From Patescibacteria group bacterium (GTDB taxonomy: Bacteria; Patescibacteriota; Patescibacteriia; 2-12-FULL-57-11): 64,000 bases of DNA. Location: positions 7,442 to 71,441 of the forward strand of contig JBBUJK010000029.1 of the NCBI GenBank assembly GCA_038054875.1. The letters are read 5' to 3'. Positions 37,195 to 62,471 of the stretch are shown in pieces (positions within the stretch are counted from its first letter, which is position 1; each line of letters opens with the position of its first letter). Both the position numbers and the translations under genes were made by a program. The notes beneath the pieces were generated by a model, which saw nothing but the letters and a program-made list of their open reading frames with translations, did not search any database and was not told the origin of the DNA.

Positions 37195-37223
37195 TTGACA
37201 ATTCGGGCTTTTTCTGTTATATT
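37195..37223 (+). promoter_or_regulatory. consensus promoter TTGACA-N17-TATATT
   Basis: TTGACAattcgggctttttctgtTATATT. Near-identical to the promoter at 27165. Confidence 0.55.
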
Positions 37224-37224
37224 T

Positions 37225-37351
37225 GGCCGTTGTGGAATGCGGCGTTTTTGGGCTTTTGGAAGGCCTTAGGACGCCGCTTTTCACAGGTGAGCCGATTCCG
37301 GGGCGTTTCCCGGAGGAGGTCAGCCGAGGCGGTGACAGGAGGGTGAGCCAC
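37225..37351 (+). ncRNA. conserved 5' leader, paralog of 27196-27345
   Basis: Same conserved blocks as the 27196 leader, including the GCGGCG...CGCCGC stem, a CCGGGgcgttTCCCGG hairpin and SD GGAGGG. Confidence 0.35.
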
Positions 37352-38206
37352 ATGGCCAGCCTTTTCGATCTGGGTCTGGGTGAGTTCGACGAGTTCAAGC
37401 GCATCGCCCACAAGGCGGGATTCAGCGCCGAGCTGATCCGCAAGGTGAACGGCGACCCCGAGCTCGCCGTCGTCGCGCGCGCGGCCATCGAGGCCAAGCT
37501 CGCGGAGATGGCGAAGCCCCGCTTCGTCCTCTCGGTCTACGAGCAGTTCCGTCGCTTCAGTGCCGCGAACAAGGCACAGGGCTGGGGCTTCGACGCAGAG
37601 GTCTTCGAGAGGCTCGCGGCGACGGTGCCCGAGTGGCCCGAGGGCAAGCTCTGTGTGCGGTCGCTGCGGATCCGCATCGGCGAGGGAGCCGCGGGGGCCG
37701 CCACGACCTTCGAGGCCCACGCCGCGGAGATCCAGCGCGTCTTCTCCAGCGAGAAGTACTGGCGCTGGGAGCATCTGCGCTCCGCACCCCACCCCTACGA
37801 GGGGGCGGACCCCAAGCTCCAGAAGCGCTTCGGGGACAAGCCGGTGGAGCGCCTCCGGCTCCTCGCGGGCAACGACACACACAAGCCCGTGGTCGAGTGG
37901 GTCGTGATCGACCTCGACGCCCACCGGAGCCGCAGGAGCATCACGGCGGTCCGCGACAAGAAGTCGTCGCTGGCCGACGAGCTGCTCGTCGTCGCCTGGA
38001 TGTTCCCGGAACTGATCCGGGCCATCGACTACGACGAGGTCCCCGGGCTGTTCGCCGGCGGCTACGAGCTCAACGTTCCCGAGGAGGACGGCGAGGGGTG
38101 GCGGGACGTGCCGTGCGTCGTCTTCAGCGGCAGTCAGGTGGAGCTGGGCGCCGGCTGGCACTGCGACGACGGCTCGTACGACTCAGTTCCCGCCCTGCGG
38201 GAGTGA
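37352..38206 (+). CDS. hypothetical protein, N-terminal domain paralogous to the DGR target (no VR)
   Basis: N-terminal 45 aa about 50% identical to the 27346 product (LGxxxExxxxxxxAGxxxxLxxKxxGDxELV). The C-terminal 230 aa are unrelated. Confidence 0.5.
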   Translation: MASLFDLGLGEFDEFKRIAHKAGFSAELIRKVNGDPELAVVARAAIEAKLAEMAKPRFVLSVYEQFRRFSAANKAQGWGFDAEVFERLAATVPEWPEGKLCVRSLRIRIGEGAAGAATTFEAHAAEIQRVFSSEKYWRWEHLRSAPHPYEGADPKLQKRFGDKPVERLRLLAGNDTHKPVVEWVVIDLDAHRSRRSITAVRDKKSSLADELLVVAWMFPELIRAIDYDEVPGLFAGGYELNVPEEDGEGWRDVPCVVFSGSQVELGAGWHCDDGSYDSVPALRE

Positions 38207-38458: not shown

Positions 38459-39670
38459 ATGCCGCTTTTGTTTTTGGCGCAGAGCGCCGGATCGCCGTCC
38501 AAGACGTTTCGTATTTGCGGCCTGGCGCTCCTGCTCGGATTGGCTTTTGCGCCGTATCACGCCGTTCTCGCAGTCGGTGTCGGCGTGCTCGTCGTTGCCG
38601 CATGCCGCATGCCGCGTGCACGTCGCGTTCTTGCCGTCGCCGCAATCGTGTTTCTGATCGGCGCAATCCGACCGCGGGGGCCGACGATTGTGTTGCCGAC
38701 GGAGTCGTTTGCTTCCCTCCGCGCCGCGTCGGTACGCGCCGTGCGCCGGGCAGCGCCCGGGCCGGAAGGAACGCTCTTGCTTGGCATGAGCGTCGGCGAC
38801 ACCACCGACATGCCGCGCTGGTTGACGTTGCGATTCCGGCGCACCGGCACGTCGCATCTTCTTGCTGTCTCCGGCGCGAACGTTACGATCGCTGCAGGTA
38901 CTCTTGTTTCGATGTTGTTTGCCCTGCGATTGCGGCGCCGTGCGGTCGCGCTTGGTGCGGCGGTAGCAGTGTGCGCCTTCGCGCTTTTCGCCGGTGCGGA
39001 ACCGCCGGTCACGCGCGCCGCGTTCATGGCGCTGCTTGTTCTCACTGCGCGCGAACTCGGTCGCACACCGGACAGCGCCAACCTGCTCATCGCCGCAGCC
39101 TGCATCATGCTCGCCTTGGATCCTCGCGCAATCACGAGCGTCAGCTTCGCGCTGTCGTTCACGGCAACGGGCGGCTTGCTCTGGCTGACACCGCCGATCG
39201 CGGCCCGGTTCGAAACGATGCGCCTCGTCCGACGCGCGCCGGAGTTCTTACGCGGGACTGCTGCGGACGGACTCGCGGCGCAGCTCGCGACGCTTCCCAT
39301 TGCGTTGGGCACTTTTGGCACGTTCTCGGCCGTCTCGCCGCTTGCGAACATTCTGGCTGCGCCGTTTGTGCCGCTTTTGACCATCGGCGGGGGAGTGCTT
39401 CTTGCCGCCGCAGGCATCCAGCCAGACCTTGGGCGCGTCGTTGGTGTGTTTTTGGCTATCCCTGTCCGCGTGCTTCTCGTGCTTCTTGCGTGGTGTGACG
39501 CCGTACCAGGCGCGTTTCTCGCCGGCGGAAGCATCCCGCTTCCCCTCGCCGTTGCCTGGTATATTTTTCTCGCCGCGATCGTTGTCCGGGCCAGGGGCTT
39601 GGCGGATGACGGAAAAGCGCGTATGATTGGCGAAACCATTCCTCCCTTTGTATATGCCAAACACGATTGA
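38459..39670 (+). CDS. comEC: ComEC/Rec2-family competence protein (membrane channel domain only)
   Basis: Competence-domain pattern LLAVSGANVTIAAG...FALSFTATGGLLWL with multiple TM helices. 403 aa, no beta-lactamase domain. Confidence 0.65.
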   Translation: MPLLFLAQSAGSPSKTFRICGLALLLGLAFAPYHAVLAVGVGVLVVAACRMPRARRVLAVAAIVFLIGAIRPRGPTIVLPTESFASLRAASVRAVRRAAPGPEGTLLLGMSVGDTTDMPRWLTLRFRRTGTSHLLAVSGANVTIAAGTLVSMLFALRLRRRAVALGAAVAVCAFALFAGAEPPVTRAAFMALLVLTARELGRTPDSANLLIAAACIMLALDPRAITSVSFALSFTATGGLLWLTPPIAARFETMRLVRRAPEFLRGTAADGLAAQLATLPIALGTFGTFSAVSPLANILAAPFVPLLTIGGGVLLAAAGIQPDLGRVVGVFLAIPVRVLLVLLAWCDAVPGAFLAGGSIPLPLAVAWYIFLAAIVVRARGLADDGKARMIGETIPPFVYAKHD

Positions 39671-40112
39671 ACGGACCTGTATCATTCTTAAACCGGACGC
39701 ATTGCAGCGCAATCTGCTCGGCGATATCGTCCGTCGCTTCGAACTCAAGGGATTGAAGATCATCGGCATGAAGATGATCGCGCTCTCCGATGTACACCTG
39801 GACGAGCACTACGCCCATCACAAGGACAAGCCGTTCTTCGGCGATCTCAAGAAGTTCATGATGTCCTCGCCGGTCGTCGTCATGGCACTTGAGGGCGTGG
39901 ACTGTGTGAACGCGGTGCGTATCCTCGTCGGCAAGACGCGCGGCAACGAGGCGGATGCCGGATCCATTCGCGGCGACCTCTCCATGGGCACGATGAACCT
40001 GGTGCACGCCTCCGATTCTGCGGAGAACGGAGCTGCCGAGATTTCCCGTTTCTTTGCTCCAGAGGAAGTCTTCGCCTACAAGAAAATTGACGCCGACTTC
40101 ATCTACGGATAG
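39654..40112 (+). CDS. ndk: nucleoside diphosphate kinase
   Basis: ERTCIILKPDALQRNL...NLVHASDS (NxxHGSD-type active site). 152 aa from the internal ATG; overlaps the comEC end. Confidence 0.85.
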   Translation: MPNTIERTCIILKPDALQRNLLGDIVRRFELKGLKIIGMKMIALSDVHLDEHYAHHKDKPFFGDLKKFMMSSPVVVMALEGVDCVNAVRILVGKTRGNEADAGSIRGDLSMGTMNLVHASDSAENGAAEISRFFAPEEVFAYKKIDADFIYG

Positions 40113-40205
40113 ATGCCTTGCCGCCGTTTTCTTTTGCTGGTAGGTTCATTTCTTCCGTCGCGCGGTGCGATGGGAGCATGCCATGCTGCATGAGAAGGAG
40201 ACGAC

Positions 40206-41525
40206 GTGGATGATGTGACAAAACAGGTGTTGCCGCGCTTCGACGAACCGCGGACGTTCGCGAAAAAAAAGGAACGGCCGCAGTTGCGGGCCGTGGACCC
40301 GCCCGGATACGAGGAGCTGCATCCCATCTGGCCGGTGACGGCGCAGGGGTTGCGCACCTACATGCGGCTTCTCGCGGACCGCGGCGAGTGCGTGTCCTAC
40401 CCGTACCTCCATAAGCAGCGTGTCTACGCCAAGCTGCTGGAGCGGCTCCAAGCGCTTTCATCAGGAGAGCGGCCGAAGTTCCTGGCGCAGCGTGTTCGGG
40501 AGACGTACCGCGTCGATGGCGGGCTCGACGATGACGGCGTCTACGACCTGATGCGGGAATGCCTGCAGACGGCACGTGACGCGGTCACGGAGTACAACGA
40601 GAAGTTCATCCCGGAACTCTTCCGCGCGCCCTTCACTTCGGAAGGGACGCTCGAGACGAAGGTCGATCCCGTTGAGATGATGTTGGAGATCGTGGACACG
40701 CCCTGGCTGCATCTTGATCCCGGCAACGCGCGCGACTACAAGCAGCGCATTCGCCTGTTCTCGATGCGACGCGATCTGGTACTGGGCGAGCGGCTGTTCG
40801 CCATCTGGCACAAGCTGCAGGACATGACGGCCGGGCGGCCGTTCGAGAAGTACATCACCGATGTGCTGGAAGAACGGTTCTTCACCCCAGGCGTGGAACG
40901 CCAATTCCAAGTCCGCGTCCTGATCGATCGCGAGACGGGCGATCCGCTCCGCGTACTCGGTCCGCAGGAATCAGCAGACGGCGGGGAGTTCATTCCCGTG
41001 CCCATGCCATGCCGCTACTTCAAGGATCGCTTCGGTCGCGAACTGCCGGTCTTCTTCGATCCCGGACAGAAGAAGCCGGACGAAGTGCTGTTCAAGATGA
41101 TGGAGCGCGGCATCACGGATCCGCTCAAGCTCCACGACTTGTTCCGTTTCCAGCTGGTGTTCCGGGATGAGTGCGAACTCGGCCTCGGCATCCAGGCGCT
41201 CGTGGAACGGGTGTTCCCGATGGTCGGCGCCATGAGCGACATCAAGGATACGCGGCGCGACAACGGCGATCGGGGAAATCCGATCTCGGCCAACGACTAC
41301 CGGGTCATCTACGTGGACTTCACCTACGGCGGATACGTCTTCGAAGGGCAGTTTCATGACTTCGAGAACTACGTTCGTTCGCGGTCCTCGAAGGGTCCGG
41401 TCAACCACCGGCAGTACAAGCGGCGGCGCGCAGGCAGGGTGTTGCCACTGCTGAATCCGGCGGAAATCTTCGGGGTGGATTGGGCGGATCCCGACATCGC
41501 CGCACAGGTGCTCGCCGGCGGGTAA
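40206..41525 (+). CDS. divergent RelA/SpoT-like nucleotidyltransferase-fold protein with long N-terminal extension
   Basis: The C-terminal 160 aa align to the small alarmone synthetase synthetase-domain core: FKMMERGIT (cf. KEKMARRGIT), HDLFRFQLVFRD (Syn2 position), DIKDTRRDNG..YRVIY (Syn3), FEGQFHDFENY (ExQxR/H Syn4). The key G/R of Syn2 are substituted. Confidence 0.4.
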   Translation: MDDVTKQVLPRFDEPRTFAKKKERPQLRAVDPPGYEELHPIWPVTAQGLRTYMRLLADRGECVSYPYLHKQRVYAKLLERLQALSSGERPKFLAQRVRETYRVDGGLDDDGVYDLMRECLQTARDAVTEYNEKFIPELFRAPFTSEGTLETKVDPVEMMLEIVDTPWLHLDPGNARDYKQRIRLFSMRRDLVLGERLFAIWHKLQDMTAGRPFEKYITDVLEERFFTPGVERQFQVRVLIDRETGDPLRVLGPQESADGGEFIPVPMPCRYFKDRFGRELPVFFDPGQKKPDEVLFKMMERGITDPLKLHDLFRFQLVFRDECELGLGIQALVERVFPMVGAMSDIKDTRRDNGDRGNPISANDYRVIYVDFTYGGYVFEGQFHDFENYVRSRSSKGPVNHRQYKRRRAGRVLPLLNPAEIFGVDWADPDIAAQVLAGG

Positions 41526-41602
41526 TGCCGCGGCTCGCGGTCCGTATCAGGACCCCGGGCCGCCTTTTTTATTCCGGCCATTTCTGCTAGCATGTCCCGC
41601 GT

Positions 41603-43516
41603 ATGAAGAAACGAACTTTTCTCGCCGTCTTTCTCCTCGTGCTCGTCGCAGCTGTCGTGGGCGGACTGAACGCCTGGGCATTGTCGGCGCCCGCGGAGCG
41701 CGGCGTGCCGATCGCAACGGTAACGGTCGACGAAGGAGAGGCGTTCCTGCGGCACGGTGCCGGATCCTGGGAACCGGTCGCGGCCGATGCGGCGCTGGCC
41801 GAAGGAGATCAGGTGAAAACCAACATCAAGAGCCAGGCGACGATCAATTTCTTTGACGGCGCCACGGCACGGCTCGATGAGGACAGCGAAGTTGTCATAC
41901 GCGAGCTCACGATGGATGCGGATAATCATGCGAGTTCCCGCGTAACGCTCGCGGTGACTGCCGGGCGCGTCTGGTCGCGCGTCGTGAAAATTCTCGACCG
42001 CGATGCAACCTACAGCGTGCAATCCTCGACTGTTGTTGCCACGGTGCGCGGCACGACCTTTGTGGCTGATGTTTCGAGTCCTGACGGTGACGCCATGCAA
42101 GTCGCCGATGGTCTTGTCCGTGTTGCCCGCGCGCCGAACACACCCACGGAACCGGCTTGGGAAGACGTCCGCTCCGGCGAGGAAGCATGGATGCCAAAGA
42201 AGGGCGGGGTCGCCGCCGCAGACAAGCTGGTTCGTCGCGCCATGGCCGAGCGTTTTCGTAGCTCGGCGTGGTTCCGCAAGAACCAAGCCGCGGACGAAGT
42301 GTTTTTGAATTATGTGAAGCAGCAGCGTGAGCGGATTCTTTCCGGCGCTGCGCGGACCCTGCCGGGAACACCGCACCACGCGCTTCAGGGATTTGGTGAG
42401 CGGCTTCGCCTGGCGCTCACGACCGATTCCGATGCGCGGCGCAATTTGCGCATGGCATACGAGGACCGCCGTTTTGCGGAAACTGTGCTTTTGGCGCGCG
42501 CCGGCAAGACAGATGCGGCCATGCGTTCCTGGTCCCGCTACCTCGACGGGTTCCGCGCCATGCAGCGCGAGATCGGCGTCGGAAAGATGGAACAAAAGAA
42601 GACGCGCACGATTATTAAGCAGATGGTCGGCCGCATGGCTGAACACCGCATGCTCATCGCCGCCTTGAACGGCGAAGGGGTGCAGGTGCCGGACACGTTG
42701 CGCGACCGCATCATGGGCGAGCGTTCCGAGATGGGCGACATGCTGTCCGCGCTCCAGGTGATGGATCCGGATGCCTTCGGCACCGCAGTGCCGGTTCGCT
42801 TCCGTCCGCTTGATGCACCGCGCGTCGACACCGCGACCACGACGGAACCGACGGTCATTGATGATACGAAGAATCTTCCGACGACGAACACCAACACGAA
42901 TACCAACAAACCGGTCAACACGAACACGAACGTTCCGACGAATACGAACACGAATATTCCCGTGACCGGACCTACGGCACAATCGCTTGCCGTCATTGGC
43001 ACGCGCACGCTCATGAACATTCCGGACTCCCAGCAGTTCCGGGCGATGCTCTCGATGAGCGACGGCTCGACCAGCGACGTAACCGTCGACGCCCAGTGGG
43101 AACTTGTCGGCGACGCCATTGGGACGCTCGCGCGCGGCTATCTCACAACCGCGGCGCTTGGCAGCGCCAGCGTGCACGCCACGTATGCCGGCTTCACGGG
43201 CAGCTACAACATCCGCACCATCCAACAGGCGCCGACGCAGGCGACGCTCCAGAGCGTGACGGTTTCACCCGCCTCGGCATCGCTCAAGAACGGCCAGCAG
43301 CAGGCCTTCAGCGCCACTGCCTCGTACAGCGACGGCTCGACCCGCGATGTCACCGCTCAGGCAGCCTGGTCGCAGTCGAATCCGGCGGCCGGTACGCTCA
43401 CGGGGAACGTCTTCGTCGTGAGTTATCAGTTCCAGGCGCAAGCGACGACGATCACGGCACGCTACACCGACGGCATCACCGTCTCTGGAACGGCGAACGT
43501 GTCCGTTGGTCCGTAA
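41603..43516 (+). CDS. FecR-domain membrane-anchored protein with NTNTN low-complexity linker and two Big_2 Ig-like domains
   Basis: N-terminal TM helix; FecR-like segment TVDEGEAFLRHGAGSWEPVAADAALAEGDQVKT; C-terminal Big_2 patterns (VTVSPASASLKNGQQQAFSATASYSDGSTRDVT). Confidence 0.6.
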   Translation: MKKRTFLAVFLLVLVAAVVGGLNAWALSAPAERGVPIATVTVDEGEAFLRHGAGSWEPVAADAALAEGDQVKTNIKSQATINFFDGATARLDEDSEVVIRELTMDADNHASSRVTLAVTAGRVWSRVVKILDRDATYSVQSSTVVATVRGTTFVADVSSPDGDAMQVADGLVRVARAPNTPTEPAWEDVRSGEEAWMPKKGGVAAADKLVRRAMAERFRSSAWFRKNQAADEVFLNYVKQQRERILSGAARTLPGTPHHALQGFGERLRLALTTDSDARRNLRMAYEDRRFAETVLLARAGKTDAAMRSWSRYLDGFRAMQREIGVGKMEQKKTRTIIKQMVGRMAEHRMLIAALNGEGVQVPDTLRDRIMGERSEMGDMLSALQVMDPDAFGTAVPVRFRPLDAPRVDTATTTEPTVIDDTKNLPTTNTNTNTNKPVNTNTNVPTNTNTNIPVTGPTAQSLAVIGTRTLMNIPDSQQFRAMLSMSDGSTSDVTVDAQWELVGDAIGTLARGYLTTAALGSASVHATYAGFTGSYNIRTIQQAPTQATLQSVTVSPASASLKNGQQQAFSATASYSDGSTRDVTAQAAWSQSNPAAGTLTGNVFVVSYQFQAQATTITARYTDGITVSGTANVSVGP

Positions 43517-45512
43517 TCGTATGGCACGCCTCGGTCCTTTCCGCGCCGTTCTCTTCACCGCCGCCCTCGCGGCGGTGTTGGTTGTGTGCGCGCGTCTCGG
43601 ATTTTTTCAGTCGGCGCAGAGACTCTTGTCCGACGCGTTGTTCATTGGGTATGCACCGCCGCAGAATATCGTGATCGTGGGTATCGACGACGCCTCGATC
43701 CGCGAGATCGGCCGCTTTCCCTGGCGGCGCAGCGTGCATGCCGCGCTCATCCAGAAACTCACCGAGTCCGGCGCCCGCGCCGTCGGCTACGACGTGAATT
43801 TTCCGGAACCAACCTGCGCAAAAGGGGAGACTGGCACGGCCTGTGGCGACGACGCCACACTCGCCGCTGCATTGCGCGAGGCGGGCAACGTCGTCCTGCC
43901 GCTTGAAGCAACGTTCGTGCAGACATCCGGCGAATCATCGCCCCTTGCCGTGCGGCCGATTGCGCCCATTCCAGAACTCACCGCTGTGGCGCCGCTCGGA
44001 TTTGTGAATACGCCGCCGGATGCTGATGGCGTCTTCCGCCGCGTGCCGCTGTCCGTGCGCGGCGTGTCTGCGGAGCGCAATCGGCCGATGTTCCGCGCCG
44101 TGCTCGAGACCGCCTTTCCCGGGCGGGAATTTTCGCAGACGGAAGGATCGTTCATCGTGAATTTCGCCGGGCCCAAGGGAACGTTCCGGACCGTCTCGTT
44201 CGCTGATGTGCTGAACGGCCGCTTCGACGCCACGATGTTTAAGGACGTCATCGTGCTTGTGGGCGCCACGGCACCGGATCTTCACGATGTGCTGACAACG
44301 CCCACGGCCAAACGCGACCCGATGTCCGGGATCGAAGTGCACGCCAACGCCATTGCCACGGAACTGTCCGGACACCACCTGCGTGATCTGCCGCCGCTCG
44401 TGCGTGATGCACTCATCGTATTGTTTTGCGCCTTGGCCGCGGCAACCATGCTGCGCCTGCGTTTACGCACGGCCTGGCTCATCGTCGGCGGCACGTTCGT
44501 CCTCTACATCCTGGCAATGCTCGCACTTTTCGACGCCGGCATTGTCGGCGATCTGTTCTACCCGCCGCTCGCGCTTGTGCTTGCCTCCGGTTTGACCATG
44601 GCCGAGCGCACGCTTCGGGAAAAGGCGGAACATCTGCGGACCCGCACCGTACTCGAACGCTACGTCTCCAGCGCCGTGGTGCGCGATCTCATGGCGCATC
44701 CGGAAAAGCTGGAACTCGGCGGCGAGCGTCGCGAGATGACCGTGCTCTTTTCCGACCTGCGTGGATTCACCTCCATTTCAGAAAAGCTGTCGCCGGAAGA
44801 TCTTGTTGCCGTGCTGAACATCTACCTCGATGTGATGACCGAACTCGTCTTCGCGCATGAGGGCGTGCTCGACAAATACATGGGCGACGCCATCATGGCC
44901 TTCTGGGGCGCGCCCTACGACGACGTGAAGCACGCCATGCATGCGGTTGAAACAGGACTTGCGATGCGCACGCGCCTGACCGAGATGAACGCGCGAGGCG
45001 CATTTCCGGAAGGTGTGATCTTGAAACTTGGCATCGGCGTCAACTCCGGGCAGATGGTCGTCGGCAACATGGGATCGAAGAATCGTTTCGACTACACCGT
45101 CATGGGCGACGCCGTAAATCTTGGCGCGCGGCTCGAGGGGTTGAATAAAGATTACGGCACAGAGGTCATTGTTTCCGAGAGCACCAAGAAATTGATCGGT
45201 CACGGCTATTTGCTGCGTCCGCTCGACCGCGTGGCGGTCAAAGGCAAGAAAGAGCCGATTGATATTTACGAAGTGGTCTGCGGCGCAAACGAAGCGAGCG
45301 ACGCCCAGAAGATGTTCGTGAAGCATTTCGCCGACGCGCGCGACCTCTACCTCGCCCGGAAGTTTTCGGACGCCCGTGACGCTTTCCATGTCATAGCCCA
45401 CGTCCGCACCGACGACCTCTCCCTCCAGAATTACATCGCGCGCTGCGAACAGTTCCTGGAAGTTCCGCCGCCTGCCGACTGGGATGGGACACTGGTGAAG
45501 AAGACGAAGTGA
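43506..45512 (+). CDS. CHASE2-sensor class III adenylate/guanylate cyclase
   Basis: Periplasmic CHASE2-like region between TM helices, then cyclase domain (TVLFSDLRGFTSISEKL...MGDAVNLGARLEG). The start overlaps the upstream FecR gene. Confidence 0.8.
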   Translation: MVRNRMARLGPFRAVLFTAALAAVLVVCARLGFFQSAQRLLSDALFIGYAPPQNIVIVGIDDASIREIGRFPWRRSVHAALIQKLTESGARAVGYDVNFPEPTCAKGETGTACGDDATLAAALREAGNVVLPLEATFVQTSGESSPLAVRPIAPIPELTAVAPLGFVNTPPDADGVFRRVPLSVRGVSAERNRPMFRAVLETAFPGREFSQTEGSFIVNFAGPKGTFRTVSFADVLNGRFDATMFKDVIVLVGATAPDLHDVLTTPTAKRDPMSGIEVHANAIATELSGHHLRDLPPLVRDALIVLFCALAAATMLRLRLRTAWLIVGGTFVLYILAMLALFDAGIVGDLFYPPLALVLASGLTMAERTLREKAEHLRTRTVLERYVSSAVVRDLMAHPEKLELGGERREMTVLFSDLRGFTSISEKLSPEDLVAVLNIYLDVMTELVFAHEGVLDKYMGDAIMAFWGAPYDDVKHAMHAVETGLAMRTRLTEMNARGAFPEGVILKLGIGVNSGQMVVGNMGSKNRFDYTVMGDAVNLGARLEGLNKDYGTEVIVSESTKKLIGHGYLLRPLDRVAVKGKKEPIDIYEVVCGANEASDAQKMFVKHFADARDLYLARKFSDARDAFHVIAHVRTDDLSLQNYIARCEQFLEVPPPADWDGTLVKKTK

Positions 45513-61415: not shown

Positions 61416-62042
61416 ATGGTGAAAGTTCCCCTGTACAACATGGACGGCAAGAAGGTCGGCGAGCAGGAGCTCTCGGCCGCAGTTTTCGGCGTCGACATCA
61501 AACCGACCGTTCTTCATGAGGCTGCGGTGGCTCATGCTTCCGCCTCCCGTCAGATTGTCGCTCACACGAAGACCCGCGGCGAAGTCCGCGGCGGCGGCAA
61601 GAAGCCTTGGAAACAGAAGGGGACTGGTCGCGCTCGCCACGGTTCCATCCGTTCTCCGATTTGGAAGGGCGGCGGCGTGGTGTTCGGACCGCGCAACACG
61701 CGCAACTACGAAAAGAAGATCAACCGCAAGGTGAAGCAGCAGGCGTTGCGCATGGCGCTGACCGACAAGGTCGCGCACGATCGTTTGCTCGTGCTTGAGT
61801 CGCTTACCGCGGCCGAATACAAGACCAAGATCATGGTGAAGATGCTGAAGGCGCTCCCGGTGGGTCGCAAGATTCTCGTGGCGCTCCCGACGCGCGACCA
61901 AAAGGTCGTGAAGTCGCTCGCCAATCTTCCGCGCGTGACGTCCGTGAATGTCGGCAGCTTGAACATCACGGCGCTGCTCGGTCATGACACGGTGCTGACC
62001 ACGGCGGAAGGGACGAAAAAGATGGAAGAGATGTTTGGCTAA
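61416..62042 (+). CDS. rplD: 50S ribosomal protein L4
   Basis: 208 aa. [31 protein letters not shown]. Confidence 0.9.
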
Positions 62043-62051
62043 CCGCCGGCT

Positions 62052-62471
62052 ATGTCTACGTTTTTGGACAAATTCAAGTTTGGGAGGAAGCCACCGACCG
62101 GGGCCTCCGGCGGTAAAAAGGCACCGATCAAGAAAGCCGCATCCACTGCGGCTGCGGTTGCTGCTCCTTCTGGCGACCAGGACACCGGAATTGCCACCTC
62201 GGTGCTGCGCCACCCGCACGTCACGGAAAAGGCAGCCCGCATGTCCGCGCAGCGCCAGTACGTGTTCGTTGTGCCGCTCAAAGCCACCAAGCTCCAAGTT
62301 CGCGATGCTGTCATGAAACTCTATGGCGTGCGTCCGATCGGCGTGAACATCGTGCGCGTCAAAGGCAAGCAGGTGCGCTTTGGCCAGCGGAGCGGCGTGC
62401 AGAAAGATTGGAAGAAGGCCATGGTGACGCTCGCGCCGGGCGCTGCGCTCTCCATCTACGAAGGCGTGTAA
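62052..62471 (+). CDS. rplW: 50S ribosomal protein L23 (with about 45-aa N-terminal Lys/Ala-rich extension)
   Basis: C-terminal L23 core LRHPHVTEKAARMSAQRQYVFVV..KLQVRDAVMKLYGVRPIGVNIV. Confidence 0.8.
   Translation: MSTFLDKFKFGRKPPTGASGGKKAPIKKAASTAAAVAAPSGDQDTGIATSVLRHPHVTEKAARMSAQRQYVFVVPLKATKLQVRDAVMKLYGVRPIGVNIVRVKGKQVRFGQRSGVQKDWKKAMVTLAPGAALSIYEGV

Follow-up and report, generated by a model that had tools for sequence, protein, structure and literature searches.

The described proteins closest to the subject of this work belong to the RelA/SpoT homologue (RSH) superfamily. In the long RSHs Rel, RelA, and SpoT (PDB 7oiw, 6yxa, 7qps, and 1vj7), the synthetase domain is preceded by an all-helical N-terminal region and is accompanied by TGS, ZFD, and ACT/RRM regulatory domains. 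The small alarmone synthetases (SAS) RelQ and RelP (PDB 5ded and 6ex0) are single-domain proteins of ~200–230 aa encoded by chromosomal genes that have no antitoxin. The toxic SAS (toxSAS) and fused RSHs, including FaRel2 (PDB 8pu4), CapRel (PDB 7ztb and 9erv), and Tas1, have the catalytic fold in common with both. Here we describe a 439-aa open reading frame (ORF) that lies next to ndk, the gene of nucleoside diphosphate kinase (NDK), on a 64,000-nucleotide stretch of DNA from a Patescibacteria group bacterium (assembly GCA_038054875.1, contig JBBUJK010000029.1, positions 7,442 to 71,441). The term "window" will be used for this whole stretch, and "window protein" for the product of the ORF. 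The window protein is, with little doubt, a distant homologue with the RSH fold, and no competing fold has been identified. It is most like an SAS, yet it belongs to none of the defined RSH subfamilies tested. We favor, with a probability of about 0.5, the reading that it is a cytoplasmic, highly divergent RSH member that acts as a housekeeping pyrophosphokinase by the mechanism set out below.

Six close homologues of the window protein (100–46% identity) have been found among 5.8 billion clustered proteins. They are full-length at 77–46% identity and, given these full-length homologues, the ORF is a genuine conserved gene. A profile of the close homologues recovered 107 relatives at E ≤ 1e-3 from 1.84 billion representatives of clusters at 50% identity. 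The relatives are mostly 360–470 aa long, and the aligned portion runs from about residue 80 to the C-terminus. All family-wide counts given below refer to an alignment of 105 of the 107 relatives, termed A2, in which the divergence extends down to ~16% identity. The identical protein is found on three public contigs. Its 90% cluster includes MEK7073402.1, "MAG: hypothetical protein [Patescibacteria group bacterium]", and the remaining contigs are metagenome assemblies with names starting with "Hain_". The host is a tiny groundwater bacterium of the Patescibacteria. A second homologous-protein search with the 105-sequence alignment yielded nine proteins. Every recoverable name is "hypothetical protein", and the sources are Candidatus Uhrbacteria or unclassified "Patescibacteria group bacterium".

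Since the single sequence fails the Pfam RelA_SpoT model (PF04607), and also has no match in PADLOC, PHROGs, or the PDB sequences, the evidence for the fold has been taken from the family. The A2 consensus matches PF04607 with 29.8 bits (gathering score, 27; E = 7.9e-7; model positions 1–109 of 113), and 11 of the 105 individual members give weak matches. The first-pass annotation, which had been made from the DNA alone and had named a PF04607 hit as its check, is thus borne out by the family consensus and not by the single sequence. In a search of the PDB sequences with the A2 profile, the best match is Bacillus subtilis Rel (8acu, E = 3.8e-6), with an alignment that falls on the RxKxxxSxxxKM...DxxGxR region, followed by Rel, RelA, and RelSeq entries. 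Alignment of A2 with Escherichia coli RelA and SpoT by hhalign gives E = 2.5e-5 over 115 columns with every motif aligned, and residues 279–408 of the window protein correspond to RelA 246–361 and SpoT 228–342. The motif-by-motif likeness to alarmone synthetases that had been seen by eye is therefore reproduced by profile alignment.

The structural predictions agree with the proposed RelA/SpoT synthetase fold. The AlphaFold2 model obtained from A2 is a confident single body with a predicted local distance difference test score (pLDDT) of 93.8 and a predicted template modeling score (pTM) of 0.91, while an input of six sequences gave a pLDDT of 44. In a Foldseek search against the PDB with this model, ranks 1–21 are all RSH proteins, with probabilities up to 1.00. 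They comprise Staphylococcus aureus Rel, SpoT, B. subtilis Rel, RelSeq, Mycobacterium tuberculosis Rel, RelQ, RelP, CapRel, an exported SAS and, slightly lower, FaRel2. In the viral library, phage "RelA/SpoT" proteins and Tas1 are on top.

The catalytic motifs of the synthetase domain can be followed through the window protein (Table 1). In the hhalign alignment, the Syn1 segment PGQKKPDEVLFKM is equivalent to GRPKHIYSIWRKM of E. coli RelA. The further pairs are D311-LFRFQ with D275-VRAVR in Syn2, NPISANDY365 with NPKPNGY319 in Syn3, FE380GQFH with VE335IQIR in Syn4, and NHRQYK with AHWKYK after Syn4. The Syn2 substitution reported in the first-pass annotation is genuine, with an arginine at the glycine position and a glutamine at the arginine position of DxxGxR. 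Its description as a substituted catalytic motif holds insofar as the motif is non-canonical, but a simple loss does not describe it, since the residue at position 314 is coupled to the residue at position 287 in motif 1. All 13 A2 sequences with Arg314 lack Arg287 and have glycine, aspartate, or valine instead, while Arg287 is present in 91 of the 92 sequences with glycine or alanine at position 314 (counts 13, 0, 1, and 91; Fisher p = 1e-15, a value that ignores shared ancestry). The positions equivalent to RelA R280 and R339 vary across the family.

One of the swapped sequences, P0091 (Asp287/Arg314), is 38–39% identical to sequences with Arg287/Gly314 and much less similar to the clade of the window protein. 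The swapped sequences P0047, P0082, and P0109 likewise lie closest to sequences without the swap. The swap is not confined to one lineage, and it has arisen at least twice. DLFRFQ is one half of a compensated swap, in which, we infer, the ATP-phosphate-binding arginine would have been relocated from motif 1 to motif 2 with no inactivation of the enzyme. The coupled exchange of Arg287 and Arg314 can be regarded as a natural experiment on the rebuilding of the RSH ATP site.

Table 1. Positions in the window of the RSH-like gene, its domains, motifs, and signals, and its neighbors, with the equivalent residues of E. coli RelA (residue counts refer to A2)
Feature	Coordinates	Strand	Remarks
ndk (nucleoside diphosphate kinase)	39627–40112	+	PF00334, E = 2.3e-47; immediately upstream of the RSH-like gene
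Weak promoter-like element TTGCCG-N17-TAGGTT, inferred	40118–40146	+	In the spacer between ndk and the RSH-like gene; read from sequence
Ribosome-binding site AAGGAG	40195–40200	+	5 nt 5' of GTG; read from sequence
Divergent RSH-like gene	40206–41525	+	439-aa ORF, GTG start
N-terminal extension, clade-specific, aa 1–~80	40206–40445	+	37–77% of relatives gapped per 20-residue block
All-helical domain, family-wide, aa ~81–225	40446–40880	+	Few gaps in A2, conserved columns
Beta strands (226–273), then synthetase (SYN) core, aa 226–405	40881–41420	+	hhalign; PF04607 consensus match
Syn1 equivalent G287-Q-K289-K...K297	41064–41096	+	G287 = RelA R252, Arg lost (position 287 Arg in 91/105); K289 = RelA K254, Lys retained (104/105); K297 = RelA K262, Lys retained (100/105)
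Syn2 equivalent D311-L-F-R314-F-Q316	41136–41153	+	D311 = RelA D275 (RelSeq D264), Mg-binding Asp retained (105/105); R314 = RelA A278, "Gly" position of DxxGxR (Gly 70, Ala 22, Arg 13); Q316 = RelA R280, Arg lost
Syn3 equivalent N358-P-I-S-A-N-D-Y365-R-V-I-Y369	41277–41312	+	N358 Asn in 97/105; Y365 = RelA Y319, acceptor-base stacking aromatic (Phe/Tyr in 76/105)
Syn4 equivalent E380-G-Q382-F-H384	41343–41357	+	E380 = RelA E335 (RelSeq E323), catalytic Glu retained (105/105); Q382 = RelA Q337 (Gln in 78/105); H384 = RelA R339, Arg lost
C-terminal motifs N400-H401-x-x-Y404-K and P418...F-G-V-D-W426	41403–41483	+	N-H401-R-Q-Y404-K405 = RelA AHWKYK (HxxYK motif); Y404 in 97/105, P418 invariant, W426 in 87/105
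Terminator-like GC-rich hairpin with U-run	41530–41570	+	Right after the stop codon; -29.4 kcal/mol, z-score -2.8 (RNA fold)
FecR/DUF5667/Big_2 protein	41603–43516	+	Pfam; N-terminal hydrophobic (signal/transmembrane) segment; kept at 77–27% identity
CHASE2 adenylate/guanylate cyclase	43506–45512	+	PF05226 1.3e-53, PF00211 6.9e-23; clade-specific by synteny

The window protein shares with RelQ and RelP the Syn1 lysines, the Syn2 aspartate, the Syn3 aromatic residue, the Syn4 ExQ, and the HxxYK motif, all in the same order, and these two proteins match it in Foldseek with probabilities of 0.99–1.00 (TM-scores of 0.40–0.46 normalized to the SAS). It is likewise encoded by a chromosomal gene with no antitoxin. 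Unlike RelQ and RelP, it is ~440 aa long with ~280 residues before the core, including a helical domain, it fails PF04607, its motif-1 arginine has moved to the motif-2 glycine position, and it has an extra C-terminal P...GxDW. The long RSHs are the best profile and fold matches to the family, and they resemble it in having an all-helical region before the synthetase domain. On the other hand, hhalign aligns the synthetase domain only, and none of the relatives has an HD or TGS Pfam match at E ≤ 0.01. The TGS, ZFD, and ACT/RRM domains are all missing from the window protein, which makes ribosome-dependent control unlikely.

Among the toxSAS and fused RSHs, FaRel2 gives the tightest local superposition (root-mean-square deviation of 4.1 Å over 112 columns), CapRel aligns over 177–180 columns, and Tas1-like phage proteins are matched as well. 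In contrast to CapRel, the window protein has no C-terminal antitoxin/sensor domain and ends in a ~45-residue tail with the family motif P418...GVDW. In contrast to the toxSAS, it shows core-genome synteny, with no conserved antitoxin gene and no link to mobile elements or defense. The sole curated models touched by the single sequence are the NCBIfam models TIGR04552 and TIGR04562 (14.8 and 15.1 bits, E ~0.01), and the matches cover only aa 283–339 in the Syn1–Syn2 region. These models are also touched weakly by 10 and 6 of the 105 relatives. They are similar in length (352–356 model positions), but the scores are far under the cut-offs of 125 and 140, so the window protein is not a member. 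TIGR04552 has been reported from Myxococcus and Bdellovibrio and is listed as uncharacterized, and a literature search for it found nothing functional.

The region before the catalytic core had been described as a 280-aa N-terminal region. A long region does precede the core, but it is not uniform, and it divides into an extension, a helical domain, and a set of strands (Table 1). The first ~20 residues of the extension are modeled with lower confidence by AlphaFold2. The modeled helices of the helical domain span residues 89–101, 109–134, 155–164, 175–208, and 213–224. This domain carries two motifs, D154-P-x-x-L-L (154–159) and an arginine-rich helix R181..F185-x-x-R188-R189 with the family consensus RRRRFEA(R)R, and it has no match in Pfam, in the PDB sequences, or in RelA/SpoT. 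The synthetase domain that follows has ~130 aligned residues (aa ~279–408). The tail after HxxYK, of ~30–45 residues, is specific to the family and contains the invariant P418 and F/Y-G-[IV]-D-W426.

Six relatives of ~731–742 aa (P0069, P0076, P0077, P0096, P0105, and P0108) have a C-terminal NUDIX domain, which in three of the six is separated from the RSH-like part by an XPRT-like phosphoribosyltransferase segment (aa 479–594 of P0077, E = 2e-10). (p)ppGpp is broken down by NUDIX hydrolases, and it acts directly on XPRT and HPRT, which use phosphoribosyl pyrophosphate (PRPP). The fusions of RSH-like, XPRT-like, and NUDIX parts suggest a compact module with make, sense, and destroy functions. 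At one locus with such a fusion gene of ~735 aa (L019:5001-7196), an isochorismatase-family gene is close by, and ndk is not nearby.

The order of the genes in the window is glmS, a hypothetical gene, comEC, ndk, the RSH-like gene, the FecR/DUF5667/Big_2 gene, the CHASE2 cyclase gene, and a DEAD-box helicase gene. The adjacency to ndk given in the first-pass annotation is correct, and ndk is also upstream of the RSH-like gene in the related loci L001, L002, L004, L008, L011–L015, and L021–L023. The block leuS-glmS-comEC-ndk-RSH-like-FecR-CHASE2 cyclase is kept at 77, 46, 42, 32, 30, and 27% identity and is also present on an 856-kb contig of a GTDB representative genome. In the distant relatives P0016, P0021, and P0045 (22, 21, and ~16% identity), ndk is immediately upstream in each. 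P0045 keeps ndk with different downstream genes. P0021 keeps it with both flanks different, since nusB lies upstream on the opposite strand and the gene downstream encodes a hypothetical protein of 414 aa. The only two exceptions, with no ndk nearby, are P0078 and the multi-domain P0069. The FecR-like neighbor is absent in L021 and L023. The pairing with ndk is therefore family-wide, and the pairing with FecR and CHASE2 is limited to the clade of the window protein.

The spacer between ndk and the RSH-like gene is ~90–125 nt throughout (L012:5044-5172, L021:4872-5006, and 40113–40205 in the window). Several of the spacers contain a clear ndk terminator, then a promoter-like element, and then a strong AAGGAGG ribosome-binding site. 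The promoter-like element of the window was not called by a consensus scan. It has a matching TTGCCG...TACGTT in L016, and in L012 a TTGACT-N17-TATCCT lies 3' of the clear ndk terminator. The common pattern is TTGxCx-N17-TAxxxT, of which the window and L016 have a weaker form than L012. AAGGAG(G) also precedes the start codon in the more distant loci L012, L015, L021, and L023. No Rfam match to a riboswitch or leader RNA has been found in the spacer of the window or of 10 related loci, and the aligned intergenic regions contain no conserved RNA structure. An operon with the FecR-like and CHASE2 cyclase genes as a functional unit has been considered and down-weighted, because a terminator-like hairpin follows the RSH-like gene and because distant relatives with ndk in place do not have these two neighbors.

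Under the favored reading, the enzyme would carry out the Mg-dependent transfer of the beta-gamma pyrophosphate of ATP to the ribose 3'-OH of a purine nucleotide. Pyrophosphoryl transfer is the most economical mechanism because it is the known chemistry of the RSH fold. In the clade of the window protein, the ATP-phosphate-binding arginine would work from the motif-2 glycine position instead of from motif 1. The conserved catalytic residues suggest that the window protein is probably active. The product would be a (p)ppGpp- or (p)ppApp-like alarmone, and for an alarmone-type product we put the chances at somewhat less than even. The family can be placed in purine-nucleotide phosphate metabolism because of its NUDIX and XPRT-like fusions and its pairing with ndk, and this pairing would tie the RSH-like enzyme to the NDP/NTP pool. 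The enzyme may have a signaling role, and in the window clade only, its gene also lies upstream of the genes for the surface sensor pair of FecR-like protein and CHASE2 cyclase.

Several observations weigh against this reading. The single sequence has no match to any Pfam family at E ≤ 10, and the Foldseek TM-scores are low (0.16–0.46) with modest E-values (7.8e-4 to 0.1). Clear terminators are found 3' of ndk in L012 and L021 and, together with the promoter-like element, they indicate that ndk and the RSH-like gene appear to be separate transcription units, so that the pairing is positional and co-expression is not proven. Within the close clade, guilt by association also counts for less, because these small genomes are syntenic in general. 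Lastly, canonical basic residues are missing at the equivalents of RelA R252 (Gly), R280 (Gln), and R339 (His). The loss of these three in the window clade, whose 12-sequence consensus has no PF04607 match, would suit a pseudo-enzyme in which the RSH fold binds a nucleotide or an alarmone without catalysis and has a sensory or regulatory role. Long RSHs can contain pseudo-catalytic domains, as RelA does with its inactive hydrolase domain. Such a role is improbable, given that the Mg-binding aspartate and the catalytic glutamate are invariant, that the Syn1 lysines, the Syn3 asparagine, and the stacking aromatic are retained in the window clade, and that the loss of Arg287 is paired with the gain of Arg314 in at least two lineages, as selection for a working phosphate site would yield. 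A limited chance is given to an active enzyme of the RSH/Pol-beta nucleotidyltransferase fold that uses other chemistry or another acceptor and makes a non-alarmone product, for example by pyrophosphorylation of a non-nucleotide ribose phosphate or by nucleotidyl transfer to a small molecule or protein. The helical domain, which packs on the catalytic domain in one model (pTM 0.91), could form a new acceptor site. Syn3 is the region least similar to RSH, the C-terminal P418...GxDW has no RSH counterpart, and the fusion of relatives to a PRPP-using phosphoribosyltransferase fits a ribose-phosphate acceptor. Against this, the RSH-specific ExQ, the aromatic equivalent to RelA Y319, and HxxYK are all present, and the fold matches above noise are RSH, with generic nucleotidyltransferases seen only at E ≥ 0.5.

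The first-pass annotation had named the protein a candidate stress or defense effector, with reference to toxSAS toxins, CapRel-type phage sensors, and (p)ppApp synthetases, and had proposed a search for a small antitoxin-like ORF beside it in homologous loci. A protein of the toxSAS or CapRel type would pyrophosphorylate the CCA end of tRNA or, upon phage infection, make (pp)pApp in great excess, and an antitoxin or autoinhibitory domain would otherwise restrain it. This proposal agrees with the presence of FaRel2, CapRel, and Tas1 in the fold matches and with the divergence of the catalytic motifs, which is also seen in some toxSAS, and the large extra domain could serve as a sensor or autoinhibitor. 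Small ORFs also occur between ndk and the RSH-like gene in some relatives, in groups of 170–171, 243, 245/211/173, and 111–121 aa in addition to singletons. However, these groups are mutually unrelated and have no homologue in the window, so that no conserved antitoxin-like partner has been found, and the gene downstream encodes a FecR-like secreted protein longer than 600 aa. A tblastn search of 50,697 phage and 72,556 plasmid records gave no match. No PADLOC model matches the window protein, and across the 105 relatives there are only five single weak hits, none of them consistent. The gene is conserved vertically in a deeply syntenic core-genome block among housekeeping genes including ndk, glmS, and comEC, and the GC content around it (0.62) is the same as in most of the window. 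Because there is no conserved antitoxin, no mobile or defense match, and vertical conservation among housekeeping genes, the toxin or defense proposal is given low weight and is very improbable, and it is not upheld.

Some additional features have been observed around the gene. The FecR-like gene overlaps the start of the CHASE2 cyclase gene by 11 nt, and its product has a stretch of T-N dipeptide repeats (TNTNTNTN...). In L011 (9744-10691, minus strand), a gene with a SocA_Panacea antitoxin domain (182 aa) and a 131-aa partner lie between the FecR-like and CHASE2 cyclase genes. They look like an inserted toxin-antitoxin pair and do not adjoin the RSH-like gene. Between glmS and comEC, positions 37223–38206 of the window hold a 327-aa ORF with no Pfam match (284 aa as called in L004). 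It is absent from that position in L001 and L012–L014, which indicates a lineage-specific insertion in the block. Further downstream, positions 50736–54675 form a low-GC island (0.49–0.50 against ~0.60, GC skew +0.15) that encodes a complete restriction-modification enzyme of the MmeI type (type IIL; 929 aa), in which the full set of five MmeI Pfam domains is present, and that also has an ORF of 376 aa without annotation. It is immediately followed by three tRNA genes (54867–55093) and is probably a defense island gained by horizontal transfer. No canonical Rel/SpoT or small alarmone hydrolase has been found in the window. A weak tblastn match to SpoT at 61965–62120 falls in ribosomal protein genes and has been rejected.

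The locus represents a neat rewiring of an active site and a gain in annotation, and not a new kind of system. The family is unnamed and escapes the Pfam RelA_SpoT model at the single-sequence level. Should the enzyme prove to be ordinary, the practical outcome would be an annotation for ~100 clusters of "hypothetical protein". The Patescibacteria, or Candidate Phyla Radiation (CPR), have tiny genomes and rely on salvaged nucleotides. A search of the literature on ppGpp and the stringent response in CPR/Patescibacteria found nothing functional and no published growth-control signaling, and the 2020 RSH classification paper makes no mention of CPR, Patescibacteria, or Parcubacteria. A far-reaching reading, which is unlikely to hold, is that many Patescibacteria have in this unclassified RSH branch their resident synthetase of a nucleotide second messenger, which would work with NDK, with a rewired ATP site and a helical domain that selects the acceptor, and with a product that may be (p)ppGpp-like or an undescribed pyrophosphorylated nucleotide. 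With its conservation, its vertical inheritance, and its pairing with ndk, this RSH-like family offers a concrete candidate for alarmone-type signaling in Patescibacteria.

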